This document shows positions 5,700-23,501 of a stretch of 32,000 nt of DNA, piece by piece. Every line of letters begins with the position of its first letter. Position 1 is the first letter of the stretch. Origin of the DNA: Candidatus Nitrosopumilus koreensis AR1 (GTDB lineage: Archaea; Thermoproteota; Nitrososphaeria; Nitrososphaerales; Nitrosopumilaceae); the NCBI RefSeq assembly GCF_000299365.1, contig NC_018655.1, forward strand, positions 510,001 to 542,000. The letters run 5' to 3'. The notes beneath the pieces were generated by a model that did not search any database, was not told the origin of the DNA, and saw only the letters and a program-made list of their open reading frames with translations. The position numbers were made by a program, and so were the translations under genes.

Positions 5700-6056
5700 C
5701 TATATGTTTTTCAGTCTGTCTAATAAAATATCAAAATTAATTGGTTTTCTCATCCATGCTTTTACTCCGCGTTGCATTAAATTAGTTAATTTTGTACTTG
5801 ACATTTCAGATGCTGTTATGATCAAAACCTTTGTCGTGTTGATCAGACCTTCTTTTTCCAAAGCATCTATTACGTTTAATCCACTAAATTCTGGCATTGC
5901 AATATCTAAAAGCACTACATCAAATGTGCCTGTCTTTATCATTTCTATCCCTTTATGGCCATTATTTGCTGTGATGACTTCATGACCTGCAGCTGTTAGA
6001 TGTACTGAGATCAAATCCAATATGTCTTCAGTGTCGTCAATTACTAGAATTTTCAA
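5700..6056 (-). CDS. Single-domain response regulator (CheY-like receiver)
   Basis: 118 aa. KILVIDDTEDILD acidic pocket, phospho-acceptor context VVLLDIAMPEFSG, and conserved K in RKPINF. TTG start overlaps the kinase TGA stop (TTGA). Confidence 0.85.
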   Translation of the reverse strand: MKILVIDDTEDILDLISVHLTAAGHEVITANNGHKGIEMIKTGTFDVVLLDIAMPEFSGLNVIDALEKEGLINTTKVLIITASEMSSTKLTNLMQRGVKAWMRKPINFDILLDRLKNI

Positions 6057-10463: not shown

Positions 10464-10566
10464 ATTTTTCAAACTCTGTATTCCATAATTAACTGTAGGG
10501 TTTGAAATAATTATGAAAATCATACTAACAAAAACTACTTATGTTATGAACCTCCTACTTTCAATT

Positions 10567-10716
10567 ATGGGAACGCGAATTAGCTTAGTTATAGATGACA
10601 TTGTTTATGATAGACTACGGAAAATACAAGCAAGAATGATTCAAAATTCCAATGAATCTATATCCTTTTCTAGAGTTGTAAATGAATGTCTGGCCAAATC
10701 TGTTAAGACCAAATAA
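10567..10716 (+). CDS. Ribbon-helix-helix-like small DNA-binding protein (49 aa from the internal ATG; the ORF is open from 10513)
   Basis: MGTRISLVIDDIVYDRLRKIQARMIQNSNESISFSRVVNECLAKSV fits the RHH pattern of beta-strand, helix A, loop and helix B. The start at 10567 is chosen because RHH strands sit at the extreme N-terminus. Confidence 0.5.
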   Translation: MGTRISLVIDDIVYDRLRKIQARMIQNSNESISFSRVVNECLAKSVKTK

Positions 10717-10757: not shown

Positions 10758-11105
10758 CTAATTATTTTTCTGCATAAAGAGGCCTAGCATTGTATGTCCT
10801 TTGTCTGTAATTGTGTAGATCATATTTGATCCAACTGCTTCTTTTTTGATAAAGTTGTAGTCTACACACAGGTGAAGATAGTTCAGAAATGACTTCTTCA
10901 TTCTGATCTTTGATTTTGAATACAATTCTGAAAATGTCATTGGATTTCCTCTTAATTGATACAACAATTTCAATAAAGATAATGTACTGTAATCCTTGGT
11001 TCTTGCTTTTACTGCTCCAAGAATTTCTTCATCTCTTTTGATTATGAAATCTTCGAATTGTTCTGCCACTTCTAGTGGTACATATGTTAGTCTTGCTCGC
11101 ATCAT
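10758..11105 (-). CDS. Winged-helix transcription regulator-like protein
   Basis: 115 aa. The C-terminal 70 aa, LLKLLYQLRGNPMTFSELYSKSKIRMKKSFLNYLHLCVDYNFIKKEAVGSNMIYTITDKG, has a helix-turn-helix plus beta-hairpin wing pattern. Confidence 0.55.
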   Translation of the reverse strand: MMRARLTYVPLEVAEQFEDFIIKRDEEILGAVKARTKDYSTLSLLKLLYQLRGNPMTFSELYSKSKIRMKKSFLNYLHLCVDYNFIKKEAVGSNMIYTITDKGHTMLGLFMQKNN

Positions 11106-11123: not shown

Positions 11124-11285
11124 TTACCTTATTAGTCTTTAACTTGAGCTTTATTGATCTTTCTAGCTGATTTTTTTACACTTTTGCTTTGTGCCTACCC
11201 TCTTCCTAGATTATCACATTCCGATCAAATCTTATCTATGATTTTTGCCTAATCTCATAAATATCCCCTTTTTTGAAAATTATTT

Positions 11286-11867
11286 GTGAAAAAAATAGAG
11301 GCTGTAATAAAAAGGAAAAATTTCCCTACAATTAAAACTCATTTGAATACTGTTGGCACTTACATTATTGACAAACGAAATTTAGAAGACAGCAATATCT
11401 ATGATGAATCAAGAGGTTCACGTGTTGGTTCCACTGGCTTAAAATCTATTCCTCTGGCAAAAATTGAAACTGTTGTTCCAGATAAAGATGCAAGAAAAGT
11501 TGTTGAAATGATTTCAAAAAATTCTGGTTTGTCTGCAACTCATGGCGGAAAAATCTTTGTCTCTGAAATGGAAGAAGTGGTTGATATGGAAACTAATGAT
11601 GGTCAAAAAGATCTTGAGATTCCTTTTGAGGAAAATGTGGAAAGAAAATCATTGCCAAAACGAAGTAGATTTGTTCCTTTGCAAAAATTTACTTTACATA
11701 AACTCCAAGTAATATATGAAGAAAACAAAGATACGCTTCGAACTGATTATCGAATCAAATCATTTAGTGATTTTGTAAACCATTGCATCATGAAATATCT
11801 CCCAACATTGGAAAAACAATTGAAAAATCCTACAGTTATTTATGAAAATAATTTTGGGGATTTTTAA
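11286..11867 (+). CDS. PII-like (GlnB fold) domain fused to an RHH-like C-terminal domain
   Basis: 193 aa with a GTG start. Residues 1-106 align by eye to GlnB: MKKIEAVIK / MKKIDAIIK, IPLAKIETVVPDKD / LPKVKIEIVVPDD, HGGKIFVSEMEEVVDMETND / GDGKIFVFDVARVIRIRTGE. The C-terminus SRFVPLQKFTLHKLQVIYEE...KSFSDFVNHCIMKYL has an RHH-like strand-helix-helix pattern. Confidence 0.65.
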   Translation: MKKIEAVIKRKNFPTIKTHLNTVGTYIIDKRNLEDSNIYDESRGSRVGSTGLKSIPLAKIETVVPDKDARKVVEMISKNSGLSATHGGKIFVSEMEEVVDMETNDGQKDLEIPFEENVERKSLPKRSRFVPLQKFTLHKLQVIYEENKDTLRTDYRIKSFSDFVNHCIMKYLPTLEKQLKNPTVIYENNFGDF

Positions 11868-11868
11868 T

Positions 11869-11964
11869 TTAGAAAATGTAATCTGAAAATAACCATAAAC
11901 CTACTAGTGTTAGGCCCACTGCTGCCATTATCAATTTTGCAATCGTGATTTTAGATGTTTTCAT
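11869..11964 (-). CDS. Micro-ORF, 31 aa, single TM helix (unannotated)
   Basis: Hand translation gives MKTSKITIAKLIMAAVGLTLVGLWLFSDYIF. Its ATG overlaps the stop of the upstream micro-ORF (ATGA). Below the size cut-off of the ORF track. Confidence 0.3.
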   Translation of the reverse strand: MKTSKITIAKLIMAAVGLTLVGLWLFSDYIF

Positions 11965-12089
11965 ATGAATAGTAATAATATTGGTGGTATAACAATTATG
12001 CCTACGATTGCAGCTACTTTTGGATAGTCTTTGGGTTTTATGGGCTGCATCTTTTCTCTATGAAATAATTTACTTTTACGAATATTCAT
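11961..12089 (-). CDS. Micro-ORF, 42 aa, basic N-terminus plus C-terminal TM helix (unannotated)
   Basis: Hand translation gives MNIRKSKLFHREKMQPIKPKDYPKVAAIVGIIVIPPILLLFI. The ATG lies 6 nt after the glnK TGA stop on the same strand. Confidence 0.3.
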   Translation of the reverse strand: MNIRKSKLFHREKMQPIKPKDYPKVAAIVGIIVIPPILLLFI

Positions 12090-12095
12090 GTACAC

Positions 12096-12428
12096 TCACA
12101 TTATTGTTGATTCGCCTTCTTCGCCAGTTGCAATATCTACTGCACGTAATACCTGTGAAACGAAAATTTTACCGACTCTGCCATTTTCTTTAATGATGTT
12201 TATCACTTCATCTTCTTTAGATTCTGGTATAATAGCTTCAATCCAATATTTGTCATTGAACTGAGGGACAAAAATCTCGCTTCCTTTTGATGCGTGAATT
12301 TCTGGTCCTGGCTTTTTTCCTCTACCTCTAACTTTGCCTACTGTGAGTCCGCCTATGCCTATTTCTTTTAGTGCCTCACTAATTGCCATGACATCATTTT
12401 CGCCAAGAATGACTTCTATTTTGAGCAT
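12096..12428 (-). CDS. glnK: PII nitrogen regulatory protein (GlnB/GlnK family), divergent from amt
   Basis: 110 aa. MLKIEVIL..., GIGGLTVGKVRGRG (T-loop base), WIEAIIPES, GRVGKIFVSQVLRAVDIATGEEG. The symbol follows the convention for amt-linked PII genes; the GlnB versus GlnK subtype is not resolved. Confidence 0.8.
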   Translation of the reverse strand: MLKIEVILGENDVMAISEALKEIGIGGLTVGKVRGRGKKPGPEIHASKGSEIFVPQFNDKYWIEAIIPESKEDEVINIIKENGRVGKIFVSQVLRAVDIATGEEGESTIM

Positions 12429-12466
12429 TTGATAATTGTAATTTCTACTTGATAAATATAATTTCT
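12429..12466. promoter_or_regulatory. Direct repeat TTGATAA-N3-TAATTTCT x2 (20-nt period) directly upstream of glnK
   Basis: 12429..12446 is ttgataattgtaatttct and 12449..12466 is ttgataaatataatttct; 15 of 18 positions are identical. It starts immediately next to the glnK ATG (12428..12426). Candidate operator or promoter element. Confidence 0.25.
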
Positions 12467-12490
12467 GATTTTGTAGACCAAATGATTATC

Positions 12491-12505
12491 ATTTGACAAT
12501 CAAAT
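12491..12505. promoter_or_regulatory. Inverted repeat ATTTGA-CAA-TCAAAT about 40 nt upstream of the amt ATG
   Basis: Perfect 6-bp arms with a 3-nt spacer. An A/T-rich TATA-like tract, ttattaattaaaaa (12525..12538), follows before ATG 12545. Confidence 0.25.
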
Positions 12506-12544
12506 TAGGATATTGTTATTAATTAAAAACAATTTTTTTTCTCA

Positions 12545-13855
12545 ATGGTACTTGATTCTGGTGATACAGCATGGATGCTAGTAGCTGGAAGTCTTGTATT
12601 GCTTATGATCCCTGCATTGGGTCTTTTTGAATCTGGTTTACTAAGAAAGAAAAATGCGGCTTCAATTTTTATGCAGATATTTTTTGGTTTGGCACTTTTG
12701 AGTGTAATGTGGTTTGTATTTGGATTTAGTTTGTCTTTTGGTCCTTCTGATGAACTTGGTCTTATTGGTGATATGAATTGGGTTTTTCTCAAAGGCGTTC
12801 CATCTGATGCTCCTCTAGACTATGCACCAACAATTCCAGGCGTTCTGTTTGTAAAATTCCAATTGATGTTTGCTTGTATTACTCCATTGTTACTTACAGG
12901 AACAATTGCTGAAAGAATGAAGTTCAGCTCTTTTATCATATTTATTGCAGCATGGTCTACACTGATCTACTATCCTCTTGTACACTGGGTATGGGGTGGC
13001 GGTTGGTTAGCACAACTAGGAGTTGTAGACTTTGCAGGAGGCATTGTAATTCACACTAGTGTTGGTATGGCAGCTCTGGCTGCTGCGTTGGTACTTGGAA
13101 AGAGGAGGAATTATGGTCCTGCTATTATGATTCCTCATAGTATTCCACTTGCAGTTTTAGGTTCATCTTTGTTATGGCTTGGATGGTTTGGCTTTAATGC
13201 AGGCAGTGCACTTGCAGCATCTGGTGGTGTTGCAGGAAACACTGTTATCGTAACTCATATGGCTTCATCTGTTTCAGCCTTGATTTGGGGTGGGCTTTCA
13301 TGGGTAAGAACTGGAAAGCCTTCTGTTGTTGCTACAATTAATGGTGCAATTGCCGGACTTGCTGGAATTACACCTGCATCCGGATTTGTTAGTGCTGAAC
13401 ATGCATTTGTAATTGGTATTGCAATTGGTGTAATATCATACTCTGGCGTGGTGTTATTCAAAGAAAAACTACACATTGATGATGCACTTGATGTTAGTTC
13501 AGTTCACGGTGTTGCTGGTATTGTAGGTTCTCTTGCAATTGGTATCTTTGCAAGTACCATGATCAATCCTGGTGGAGTAGATGGATTGCTATTTGGTAAC
13601 CCTGATCAACTATGGATTCAAGCCGTAGGTGTTGGTGTTGCAGGTGCAATTGGATTTGGTGGAACATGGATACTGATGCAAATAATCAAACATTTGATTG
13701 GCATTAGAGTCACACCTGAAGTTGAAGACGTTGGTCTTGATATTAGTGAGCATGCAGAATCTGCATATTCAGATGAAGAAGAATTCATGTTAGATATGGA
13801 TACATACACAGATGAATTACAGAAAAAAGATGAAATCTTTAGAAAAAAGAAATAA
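12545..13855 (+). CDS. amt: Ammonium transporter (Amt/MEP/Rh family)
   Basis: 436 aa with about 11 TM segments. Signature regions DTAWMLVAGSLVLLMIPALGLFESG, VDFAGGIVIHTSVGMAALAAALVLGKR, GWFGFNAGSA and VHGVAGIVGSLAIGIFA. Acidic cytoplasmic tail. Confidence 0.93.
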   Translation: MVLDSGDTAWMLVAGSLVLLMIPALGLFESGLLRKKNAASIFMQIFFGLALLSVMWFVFGFSLSFGPSDELGLIGDMNWVFLKGVPSDAPLDYAPTIPGVLFVKFQLMFACITPLLLTGTIAERMKFSSFIIFIAAWSTLIYYPLVHWVWGGGWLAQLGVVDFAGGIVIHTSVGMAALAAALVLGKRRNYGPAIMIPHSIPLAVLGSSLLWLGWFGFNAGSALAASGGVAGNTVIVTHMASSVSALIWGGLSWVRTGKPSVVATINGAIAGLAGITPASGFVSAEHAFVIGIAIGVISYSGVVLFKEKLHIDDALDVSSVHGVAGIVGSLAIGIFASTMINPGGVDGLLFGNPDQLWIQAVGVGVAGAIGFGGTWILMQIIKHLIGIRVTPEVEDVGLDISEHAESAYSDEEEFMLDMDTYTDELQKKDEIFRKKK

Positions 13856-13986: not shown

Positions 13987-14361
13987 TTGACTAACAAATA
14001 TGATGGATTATGTGATGAAATTCTTGCTTTAGATGATAAAGTTCGATTTGCCGGTATTGCAAACAGCAAAGGTGAATTAATTGCAGGTGGTCAAAAAGAT
14101 AATGTTGACAAGTTACTTGTAGGCGACGAAGTTAAAATGTCCATTCATTATGCATTACAAAAAAGAGATTTGTATACTAATTTGGCCTATAAAATAGGAG
14201 ATGAGCATTCATCAATTACTGAGTATGAGAAAGTAACAATGATTAGCATTCCTGTAAATTCTAGTGAGTTGTTTTTGATCAGTACCGAACCTCGAGCAGA
14301 TTATTTGAAAATTATAGATACTGCTCACGCTAAACTTGATTCTCTAAAAGAATCTCAATAA
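13987..14361 (+). CDS. Hypothetical protein, possibly Roadblock/LC7-like fold
   Basis: 124 aa. The only conventional in-frame start after the upstream stop (13945..13947) is TTG 13987. The pattern DDKVRFAGIANSKGELIAGG resembles the N-terminal strand-turn-strand of Roadblock/MglB-like proteins. Weak assignment. Confidence 0.4.
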   Translation: MTNKYDGLCDEILALDDKVRFAGIANSKGELIAGGQKDNVDKLLVGDEVKMSIHYALQKRDLYTNLAYKIGDEHSSITEYEKVTMISIPVNSSELFLISTEPRADYLKIIDTAHAKLDSLKESQ

Positions 14362-22940: not shown

Positions 22941-23501
22941 CTAGTCATAAATCATTAGATCTTTTTCTTCTAGTAATGCATGTAAATTATTTACAGATCT
23001 GTAAACATCTGGTTCTTTCTTTGCTCCTGTACAGACAAGTTTTCCTGAGGAAAACAACAAAATGACTGTTTTAGGATCTAGCATTCTATGAATAAGTCCT
23101 GGAAATTGCTCTGGTTCGTACATACTTCTTGGTAGTGTTCTTGCAGCTTGTTCTAAGTGAATTTTTCCACCTAGATTAATTGATGCAACAATATTTTGAA
23201 TTTCTACTACTGCATCTTTCTTTACTTTGATTCCTCCTTTTCGAAGTTTTTGTACAACTGTCTTTACTGCTTTTCTTGCCATCTCTTCTGACTTGGAACC
23301 CGTACATACCATTTTACCTGAAGTGAAAATCAATGTTGCAGTTTTTGGACTCTTTAATCTAAAAACTAGCCCTGGAAATTGATCAGGATGATATTCTACA
23401 TCTGGAAATGTTCTGGTAATCTCATTCAAGTCCATCTTTTGATCTACAGATGCCGAAGCTACTACATTTTCCACACTTACGATAGGTTTGGTTTGTGGCA
23501 T
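22941..23501 (-). CDS. tbp: TATA-box binding protein
   Basis: 186 aa. Two direct repeats: IENVVASASV...YHPDQFPGLVFRL...TATLIFTSGKMVCTGSKS and IQNIVASINL...YEPEQFPGLIHRM...VILLFSSGKLVCTGAKK. Confidence 0.95.
   Translation of the reverse strand: MPQTKPIVSVENVVASASVDQKMDLNEITRTFPDVEYHPDQFPGLVFRLKSPKTATLIFTSGKMVCTGSKSEEMARKAVKTVVQKLRKGGIKVKKDAVVEIQNIVASINLGGKIHLEQAARTLPRSMYEPEQFPGLIHRMLDPKTVILLFSSGKLVCTGAKKEPDVYRSVNNLHALLEEKDLMIYD

Follow-up and report, generated by a model that had tools for sequence, protein, structure and literature searches.

A PII-like domain joined to a conserved basic tail beside amt in a Nitrosopumilus-type archaeon: a candidate DNA-binding regulator of ammonium uptake

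Candidatus Nitrosopumilus koreensis AR1 encodes a protein in which a PII (GlnB/GlnK-fold) domain is joined covalently to a conserved basic tail, and its gene lies next to a second PII gene, glnK, and to the ammonium transporter gene amt. Here we describe this fusion from a stretch of 32,000 nucleotides (contig NC_018655.1, positions 510,001 to 542,000), which is called the window throughout and whose coordinates are counted from its first letter. The fusion is real and old, and it is tied to amt and to a second PII gene across deep divergence. A highly enriched array of three short palindromes is found between glnK and amt, and related sites are found in front of the fusion gene itself. On balance we think it probable, though by no wide measure, that the fusion is a one-component transcription regulator of the PII family, restricted to ammonia-oxidising archaea (AOA). 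The closest homologues of the fusion protein are those of Nitrosopumilus (82-93% identical), and the host is of the Nitrosopumilus-type AOA. The parts of the fusion and its two principal neighbours are as follows.

11286..11867, + strand: PII-tail fusion gene, 193 aa, GTG start, end including the stop codon (list of open reading frames (ORFs) and homologues)
11286..11591, + strand: divergent PII (GlnB/GlnK-fold) domain, residues 1-102 (Pfam PF00543, PDB sequence matches, Foldseek, AlphaFold2 (AF2))
11382..11453, + strand: T-loop-equivalent insertion, about residues 33-56 (predicted local distance difference test (pLDDT) of AF2; alignments to 3ncp and E. coli GlnB/GlnK)
11592..11660, + strand: acidic, disordered, length-variable linker, residues 103-125 (pLDDT, isoelectric point (pI), family alignment)
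11661..11825, + strand: conserved basic tail module, residues 126-180, candidate DNA-binding domain (alignment, AF2, pI, stand-alone homologues)
12096..12428, - strand: second, stand-alone PII/GlnK-like gene (110 aa) that converges with the fusion gene and diverges from amt (Pfam P-II, 55.8 bits)
12545..13855, + strand: amt, ammonium transporter gene of the Amt family (Pfam PF00909, E 2.6e-115)

A first-pass annotation, made from the letters of the window alone, had proposed at 11286..11867 a PII-like sensor fused to a ribbon-helix-helix (RHH) tail beside glnK and amt. The ORF list confirms the reading frame, and together with Pfam it confirms both neighbours. The conservation and synteny with amt that had been suggested for Nitrosopumilaceae are likewise found by a species-genome scan, by tblastn and in metagenome loci. 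More than 1400 homologues of the fusion protein exist, and the best 120 of them, which were surveyed for length, are all full length (192-197 aa, 82-93% identity), complete genomes included. At least 130 genomes contain the tail, as judged by a scan of one genome per species, and our locus set (696 kb in total) consists of the best 80 of these 130; record titles place nearly all of the 80 in Nitrosopumilaceae and give a few bins other labels, and the genera Nitrosopumilus, Nitrosarchaeum, Nitrosomaritimum and Nitrosopelagicus are among them. These 80 species-level loci hold 72 full-length copies of 188-201 aa, and on every contig of sufficient length tblastn recovers fusion (+), glnK (-) and amt (+) in this order. 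Metagenomes add 222 loci with the fusion, and its distant members (177-216 aa) are 33-41% identical. In one divergent clade of about 40% identity, known from long metagenome contigs, the genes are rearranged: amt (-) stands divergent from a small membrane ORF and the fusion (+), which are followed by another PII gene, and the Amt encoded there is only about 45% identical. An artefact of assembly or annotation was rejected as the source of the join in view of the 120 full-length homologues, the 130 genomes, the 72 full-length copies and the 222 metagenome loci.

The N-terminal domain is established, by sequence comparison and by the predicted model, as a genuine but divergent member of the PII fold family, because Pfam, PDB sequence alignments and Foldseek agree; the PII fold first recognised by eye over about 106 residues therefore stands. 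Residues 1-103 match Pfam P-II (PF00543) nearly end to end, at profile positions 1-100 of 102 (42.6 bits, E 8e-11, gathering cutoff 25 bits), and residues 1-107 align to solved archaeal and bacterial GlnB/GlnK sequences (3ncp, E 2e-7). In the full-length AF2 model, a monomer prediction built on 17 family members, the PII core has a pLDDT of about 90 outside the T-loop and the order beta-alpha-beta-beta-alpha-beta (E2-9, H10-23, E27-32, E57-64, H66-79, E90-94), and the T-loop region between strands 2 and 3 (residues 38-52) falls below 50. When this model was compared with the PDB by Foldseek, all 50 matches listed were GlnB/GlnK chains (prob 1.00), with target template modelling (TM) scores up to 0.74 and 95-113 aligned columns that cover the N-terminal domain only.

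In established PII structures the nucleotide phosphates and Mg-2-oxoglutarate are held by R38, Q39, K58, G87-D88-G89-K90, R101 and R103 (E. coli numbering, used for all contact residues). We compared these positions in two independent alignments, one by HMMER to 3ncp and one by MAFFT with 78 family members and E. coli GlnB/GlnK. In both, the G-R-Q motif at the base of the T-loop (R38/Q39) is deleted in the fusion family, K58 is replaced by Leu and kept as P-L-x-K, G87 is variable or His, D88 is Gly or variable, R101 is changed to Asp, and R103 to Glu or a variable residue. K90 and, in part, G89 are the contact residues that survive, and the G-K-I-F end of the B-loop is retained. The T-loop equivalent (about residues 33-56) has the canonical length and a non-canonical sequence with neither the GRQ base nor the Y51 motif, and the family alignment holds no conserved Tyr/Ser motif equivalent to the modification site (Y51 uridylylation or S49 phosphorylation), a site which is also missing in many archaeal PII proteins. 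Since the canonical effector contacts are mostly lost, the sensing of ATP, ADP and 2-oxoglutarate that the first-pass annotation had assumed is not supported; classical ATP/2-oxoglutarate sensing by this domain appears unlikely, and some other ligand is possible. In one family member of 153 aa (P0132) the T-loop is apparently missing altogether and the full tail is kept, which suggests that the T-loop may be dispensable for the role of the tail.

The PII domain is connected to the tail by a linker (residues 103-126) that is predicted to be disordered (pLDDT <50), that has a pI of 4.4 as against 9.8 for the tail core, and whose length varies from 20 to about 65 residues across the family. The tail module itself, residues 126-180, reaches a pLDDT of 88-97 in AF2 models, and it is not docked on the PII domain in the full-length model (predicted TM score 0.43). 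Modelled alone with 11 diverse sequences (mean pLDDT 84.8) it is predicted to form an extended N-terminal arm, a helix at 11-34 of the tail numbering that is kinked at 27, a five-residue loop and a helix at 40-60, in agreement with the arm/strand-helix-loop-helix pattern noted earlier. The pattern SRFVPLQ...MKYL quoted for it is present as well, at residues 127-172 and not in the last 50 residues as had been stated; after residue 172 come 21 poorly conserved, low-confidence residues that end the protein. Conservation peaks twice, in the arm K-R-S-R-x-V-P-L-Q-K, whose R, V, L and Q are invariant, and where the last helix begins, at [RK]-S-[FY]-[SN]-D-F-[VI]-N; the alignment also shows an invariant Y. 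RHH proteins contact DNA via a basic arm or strand and the start of the last helix. By eye, the tail can be set beside Arc/Mnt, with V-P-LQK against W-P-REV and YEEN...KS-F-S-D-F against AEEN-G-RS-V-N-S-E plus a nine-residue insertion, and the nearly invariant [RK]-S-[FY]-[SN]-D-F resembles R-S-[VM]-N-S-E of these proteins. The tail lacks the Gly turn of the RHH helix-B N-cap signature and carries an extension of about nine residues ahead of the [RK]-S motif.

Family assignment of the tail by Pfam, PDB sequence profiles, NCBIfam and PHROGs, with single sequences and with the family alignment, gave nothing meaningful, and a Pfam scan of 11 diverse tails gave no match up to E 10, the RHH families (RHH_1, Arc, RHH_3/5/8, ParG, Omega, FitA, RelB and others) included. 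A phmmer search of 1.8 billion representative proteins returned 18 matches, which consist of its own family and of low-complexity or repeat noise, with no named family among them. The tail is nevertheless, judged from sequence, a separable module, because stand-alone homologues exist, namely three proteins of 68-85 aa (P0135, P0136, P0139), the only three in 5.8 billion proteins. P0135 (69 aa; L081:6001-6210, + strand), from the Thaumarchaeota metagenome-assembled genome GCA_021162925.1, is divergent from a provirus-like block that contains an 82-aa ORF and portal, capsid and connector-like genes, with a topoisomerase IB near; by analogy, such a site beside a provirus structural module would be a typical position for a small regulator. 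A viral origin of the tail was not adopted, given that no viral relatives of it were found in an IMG/VR scan and that just one stand-alone copy lies beside a provirus module.

The DNA between and upstream of these genes contains the following elements.

12472..12502, unstranded: operator-like array in the glnK-amt intergenic region, three 9-bp palindrome units TGATWATCA in 11-bp phase
12472-12480, unstranded: array unit A, degenerate in the window (4 mismatches)
12483-12491, unstranded: array unit B, TGATTATCA, perfect, core of a perfect 17-bp palindrome at 12479-12495
12494-12502, unstranded: array unit C, TGACAATCA, 1 mismatch
12454..12464, - strand: AAATATAATTT box, likely TATA element of the glnK promoter, conserved in the alignment of 76 intergenic regions
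12515..12524, + strand: GTTATTAATT box, likely TATA element of the amt promoter, conserved in the alignment of 76 intergenic regions
11257..11263, + strand: TATA-like box ATAAATA in front of the fusion gene, at about -29 relative to its start codon (72 of the 76 unique upstream regions have it at -30)
11239..11247, + strand: position of one TGATWATCA unit in relatives, just upstream of the TATA-like box; TGATTTTTG, degenerate here (3 mismatches)
11208..11216, + strand: AGATTATCA, 1-mismatch copy of the motif upstream of the fusion gene

The glnK-amt intergenic region is 114-118 bp long in 72 of 76 loci, and the centre of the array lies at a median of 59 nt from the start codons of both genes. 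Unit B is the only perfect TGATWATCA copy in the 32-kb window. Across the 696 kb of the locus set, 112 of the 135 exact copies fall within the glnK-amt intergenic region, which gives a density of 12.6 per kb there as against 0.033 per kb elsewhere, an enrichment of about 370-fold. Exactly three in-phase units are present in 64 of 73 unique intergenic regions and four in none, and flanking units occur in these 73 regions at the 11-bp phase only, not at 8-10 or 12-14 bp. The two conserved AT-rich boxes that flank the array are likely, from their position and conservation, the divergent TATA elements of glnK and amt; a bacterial sigma-70 and terminator scan was disregarded as inapplicable to an archaeon. 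In Nitrosopumilus sp. 8_1_Jan_SF_Bin66 (L043:5792-5994) the 11-bp unit TGATAATCATT has multiplied into about 11 tandem copies, and the intergenic region is stretched from about 117 to 203 bp; this natural variant could alter how amt and glnK are regulated. A direct repeat of 18 nt, TTGATAATTGTAATTTCT / TTGATAAATATAATTTCT, with a 20-bp spacing (12429-12466), abuts the glnK start, overlaps its TATA-like box and contains TGATAA half-motifs; it is confined to the closest relatives and was for that reason dropped as a core part of the system.

The promoter of the fusion gene carries the same motif. Of 76 unique upstream regions, 59 contain a unit with no more than two mismatches whose start falls at -75 to -41, and the unit centres form a sharp peak in the -50..-41 bin. 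In the rearranged clade, 11-bp-phased TGATWATCA pairs stand beside the TATA-like boxes of the fusion gene and of the small membrane ORF and also near amt, and two short contigs with 38-41% identical fusions show the same phased motif. The array and promoter loci are related by descent and the counts are not those of independent events; even so, motif, phase and the link to the fusion gene have all persisted through a change of gene order, and this argues for function.

We favour DNA binding by the fusion because of the TGATWATCA array, the basic tail and the conserved arm and helix start, and the cassette holds one protein with a plausible nucleic-acid-binding module, which is the fusion. A regulator at the amt promoter is to be expected, since the low-affinity amt of group 1.1a AOA has PII genes at its flanks (PMC4836417) and its transcription in N. 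maritimus responds to ammonia supply, being down-regulated at low or no ammonia (PMC7490402); on account of that same gene arrangement the amt of the window, judged by its PII neighbours, is probably of the low-affinity Amt1 type. In the mechanism that we propose, the tail would dimerise, most likely in an RHH-like manner: KRSRxV would serve as the basic arm or strand at its N-terminus, [RK]-S-x-[SN]-D would cap the helix and contact phosphate, and each tail dimer would read one 9-bp palindrome. Trimerisation of the PII domain would then create a hexamer with three DNA-reading dimers, one for each in-phase unit of the array that separates the divergent core promoters of glnK and amt, and a single unit beside the fusion gene's own TATA-like box would provide autoregulation. 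Lying at about -45 to -67, upstream of both putative TATA boxes, the array would be well placed for activation, and the own-promoter unit, which abuts the region of the TATA box and the B recognition element, for autorepression. The PII domain may modulate DNA binding by nitrogen status by means of a non-canonical ligand or of contacts made with Amt or GlnK, a non-classical modulation that we propose because the canonical ATP/2-oxoglutarate contacts are lost. In the fullest version, which we offer as possible and rather doubtful, the fusion would be the first PII-family protein that binds DNA itself, acting as a dimer of PII trimers whose three dimeric reading heads meet a three-unit operator set symmetrically between the divergent glnK and amt1 promoters, with one more unit in front of its own gene; it would be controlled by a non-canonical ligand, by T-loop capture on Amt or by mixing with GlnK, and would represent the long-sought transcriptional nitrogen regulator of AOA.

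A number of results weigh against such a regulator. No search (Pfam, PDB, PHROGs, hhalign or Foldseek) places the tail in any DNA-binding family. When the tail family was aligned by hhalign to a composite RHH profile, made of ten classical members, each validated by a strong Pfam match, the probability was 0.1%, no improvement on the reversed-sequence control. Helix A is about nine residues longer than in known RHH proteins, and the best of 309 deletions tried in a blind scan, that of DTLRTDYRI (9 residues), aligns helix A through helix B with an RHH probability of still only 1.7%. Foldseek of the tail against the PDB and BFVD gave no significant structural match (E at least 5.6). One of the three array units is degenerate in this window, the own-promoter sites are single or paired and not triple, and the motif is linked to the protein by co-location only, so that a regulator encoded elsewhere could bind the array; the trimer-by-dimer hexamer is speculative and entirely inferred. 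RHH domains typically need tandem subsites and can be without any detectable sequence homology (PMC3074162), and thus the failed sequence tests are not decisive against this fold. As for the RHH tail of the first-pass annotation, the strand-helix-loop-helix pattern is seen in AF2 and a significant match to an RHH or other DNA-binding family is not, which leaves it as a pattern-level hypothesis. The wider proposal of a one-component PII/DNA-binding regulator has likewise held in part: the fusion, its synteny and an operator-like array are found, but the RHH fold is not upheld and canonical sensing is unlikely.

What else the tail could be has to be judged from the same observations. It is unlikely, in our estimate, though the main rival reading, that the tail is a protein-protein or oligomerisation module such as a bundling helical hairpin, that another regulator binds the array and that the fusion gene is a member of the regulon; the tail would then tether or cluster the PII paralogue on Amt, GlnK, small membrane peptides or some other target. 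PII proteins are established to act through protein contacts, the conserved membrane peptides and the DUF6659 protein of the cassette (described below) are possible partners, and a motif at the fusion's own promoter fits a target as well as a binder; the failure of every search to return a DNA-binding family speaks for this reading too. However, conservation in the tail is strongest in its extended, arginine-rich arm, and the module that carries this arm is basic (pI 9.8), which would be unusual for a pure bundling helix pair; a stand-alone homologue occupies a regulator-like proviral position, and the motif accompanies the fusion gene through the rearrangement of gene order.

The tail might also bind DNA by another fold with the biology otherwise as we propose, for example as a tri-helical helix-turn-helix (HTH) domain with a basic arm (helix 131-146, a short helix 148-154, a turn and a recognition helix 160-180). 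AF2 breaks the first helix at tail residue 27, which gives helices of 16, 7 and 21 residues and a five-residue turn, a pattern compatible with HTH; palindromic 9-bp sites suit dimeric HTH proteins, and an RHH profile match is wanting. We regard this as improbable, since an HTH family match is wanting too, the one-residue break looks like a kink and not a turn, and the invariant residues cluster, like those of RHH strands, in the arm ahead of the helices; moreover, the sole PDB neighbour of the tail in Foldseek, itself not significant (E 6, TM 0.43-0.50), is an RHH protein, ParB of plasmid pCXC100 (3no7). That the two halves were joined by an artefact, or by a functionless lineage-specific accident, can practically be dismissed: nothing was found in its favour, and the fusion recurs in at least 130 genomes and 222 metagenome loci and in copies at 33-41% identity. 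Among these readings we continue with the one-component regulator.

To our knowledge, the transcriptional control of ammonium uptake and assimilation in AOA is essentially unknown. Neither the extension nor the motif was found described in literature searches made by topic and by the locus-tag prefixes of N. maritimus, and in the papers searched the many PII paralogues of AOA figure only as presumed classical signal proteins (PMC7490402, PMC10432482, PMC4836417). The fusion shares with canonical GlnB/GlnK (PF00543) the fold over residues 1-102, a T-loop-length insertion, K90, the GK-IF end of the B-loop and the pairing with amt. It differs in 87 extra C-terminal residues that form an independent basic domain, and in the absence of R38/Q39, K58, G87/D88, R101, R103 and a Y51-type modification motif; regulation by canonical PII proteins runs through protein contacts only, whereas direct DNA binding is proposed for the fusion. 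The principle would be that of the NikR/MetJ-type RHH repressors and of Lrp/AsnC (HTH plus RAM), where a small DNA-binding module is joined to a ferredoxin-like sensor or oligomerisation domain and binds short repeated or palindromic sites near core promoters. Compared with NikR and Lrp, the domain order is reversed and the sensor is a PII domain, typically trimeric, instead of ACT/RAM; in the searches run, the tail resembled none of the RHH_1, Arc, NikR or HTH families in sequence or profile. The PII-PipX-NtcA system of cyanobacteria, GlnK-TnrA of Bacillus, GlnK-AmtR of Corynebacterium and NrpR of methanogens also tie PII or 2-oxoglutarate to the transcription of amt and nitrogen-assimilation genes, but there PII and the DNA binder are separate polypeptides, and the fusion would combine them in one chain. 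As in the plant PII Q-loop and the SbtB redox tail, which alter PII signalling, the addition is C-terminal; those additions are about 10-20 residues that fold back on the PII body, in contrast to a disordered linker of about 23 residues and an autonomous 55-residue domain in the fusion. ParB of pCXC100 is a sequence-orphan RHH protein that acts cooperatively on tandem 9-bp repeats (PMC3074162), although its repeats are unspaced direct repeats that serve plasmid partition and the array here consists of 11-bp-phased palindromes.

If the proposal is true, the covalent union of a PII domain with a DNA-binding module would add a new signalling architecture to one of the most widespread families of signal proteins in biology, and the degenerate effector site raises the question of what the PII domain of the fusion senses. 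What is new in hand is a conserved candidate operator (three TGATWATCA units in 11-bp phase) together with three target promoters, those of amt1, glnK and the fusion gene, and the idea is therefore directly testable with purified protein and a 60-bp probe. In this sense the fusion is a candidate regulator of ammonium uptake in marine AOA that can be put to the test.

The remaining features of the cassette and of the window are listed here.

11961..12050, - strand: pep29, conserved ORF for a 29-aa single-transmembrane peptide 3' of glnK, MQPIKPKDYPKVAAIVGIIVIPPILLLFI (tblastn, syntenic site)
11869..11964, - strand: pep31, conserved ORF for a 31-aa single-transmembrane peptide, MKTSKITIAKLIMAAVGLTLVGLWLFSDYIF (tblastn, syntenic site)
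13987-14361, + strand: DUF6659 protein, 124 aa, after amt (Pfam, 37.4 bits)
10513-10716, + strand: 67-aa ORF with an RHH-like pattern, TRISLVIDD... (pattern only)
10758-11105, - strand: 115-aa ORF with weak winged-helix/Sso10a-like matches, divergent from the fusion gene
22941-23501, - strand: ordinary TATA-binding protein gene, elsewhere in the window
5700-6056, - strand: ordinary stand-alone receiver-domain gene, elsewhere in the window

The 115-aa winged-helix-like ORF is unlikely to encode the binder of the array and was set aside, because it is detected in about one third of the 80 loci and the array is near-universal. The end of the 67-aa ORF, SFSRVVNECLAKSV, resembles SFSDFVNHCIMKYL of the tail (pairwise BLASTP, E 7e-4). 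In hhalign it reaches 14.8% to the tail and 3.8% to RHH, it has no significant profile match, and among the 80 related loci weak matches occur in two only, at other positions; the local match spans only 16 residues and kinship with the tail was not accepted.

The stand-alone GlnK-like neighbour (12096-12428, - strand) is itself non-canonical. Its B-loop is about five residues shorter (GRVGKIF), an insertion lies ahead of the K58 region and the equivalents of R101/R103 are replaced (VDIA); its gene is divergent from amt, as against the usual amtB-glnK operon. The pep29 and pep31 ORFs lie directly downstream of it on the same strand, the start of pep31 overlapping the stop of pep29 (ATGA). By tblastn at the syntenic site they are conserved in 46 and 51 of the 80 related loci, respectively, and they are absent from Nitrosarchaeum-type loci, where the stop codons of the fusion and glnK are about 7 nt apart. 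The DUF6659 family is found just upstream of the fusion gene in other genera and so travels with the cassette. In the divergent clade a hydrophobic membrane ORF of about 73 aa lies between amt and the fusion (L086:3711-3930, + strand; L083:133-354), with its own motif pair and TATA-like box upstream, and a small membrane protein thus accompanies the cassette there again.

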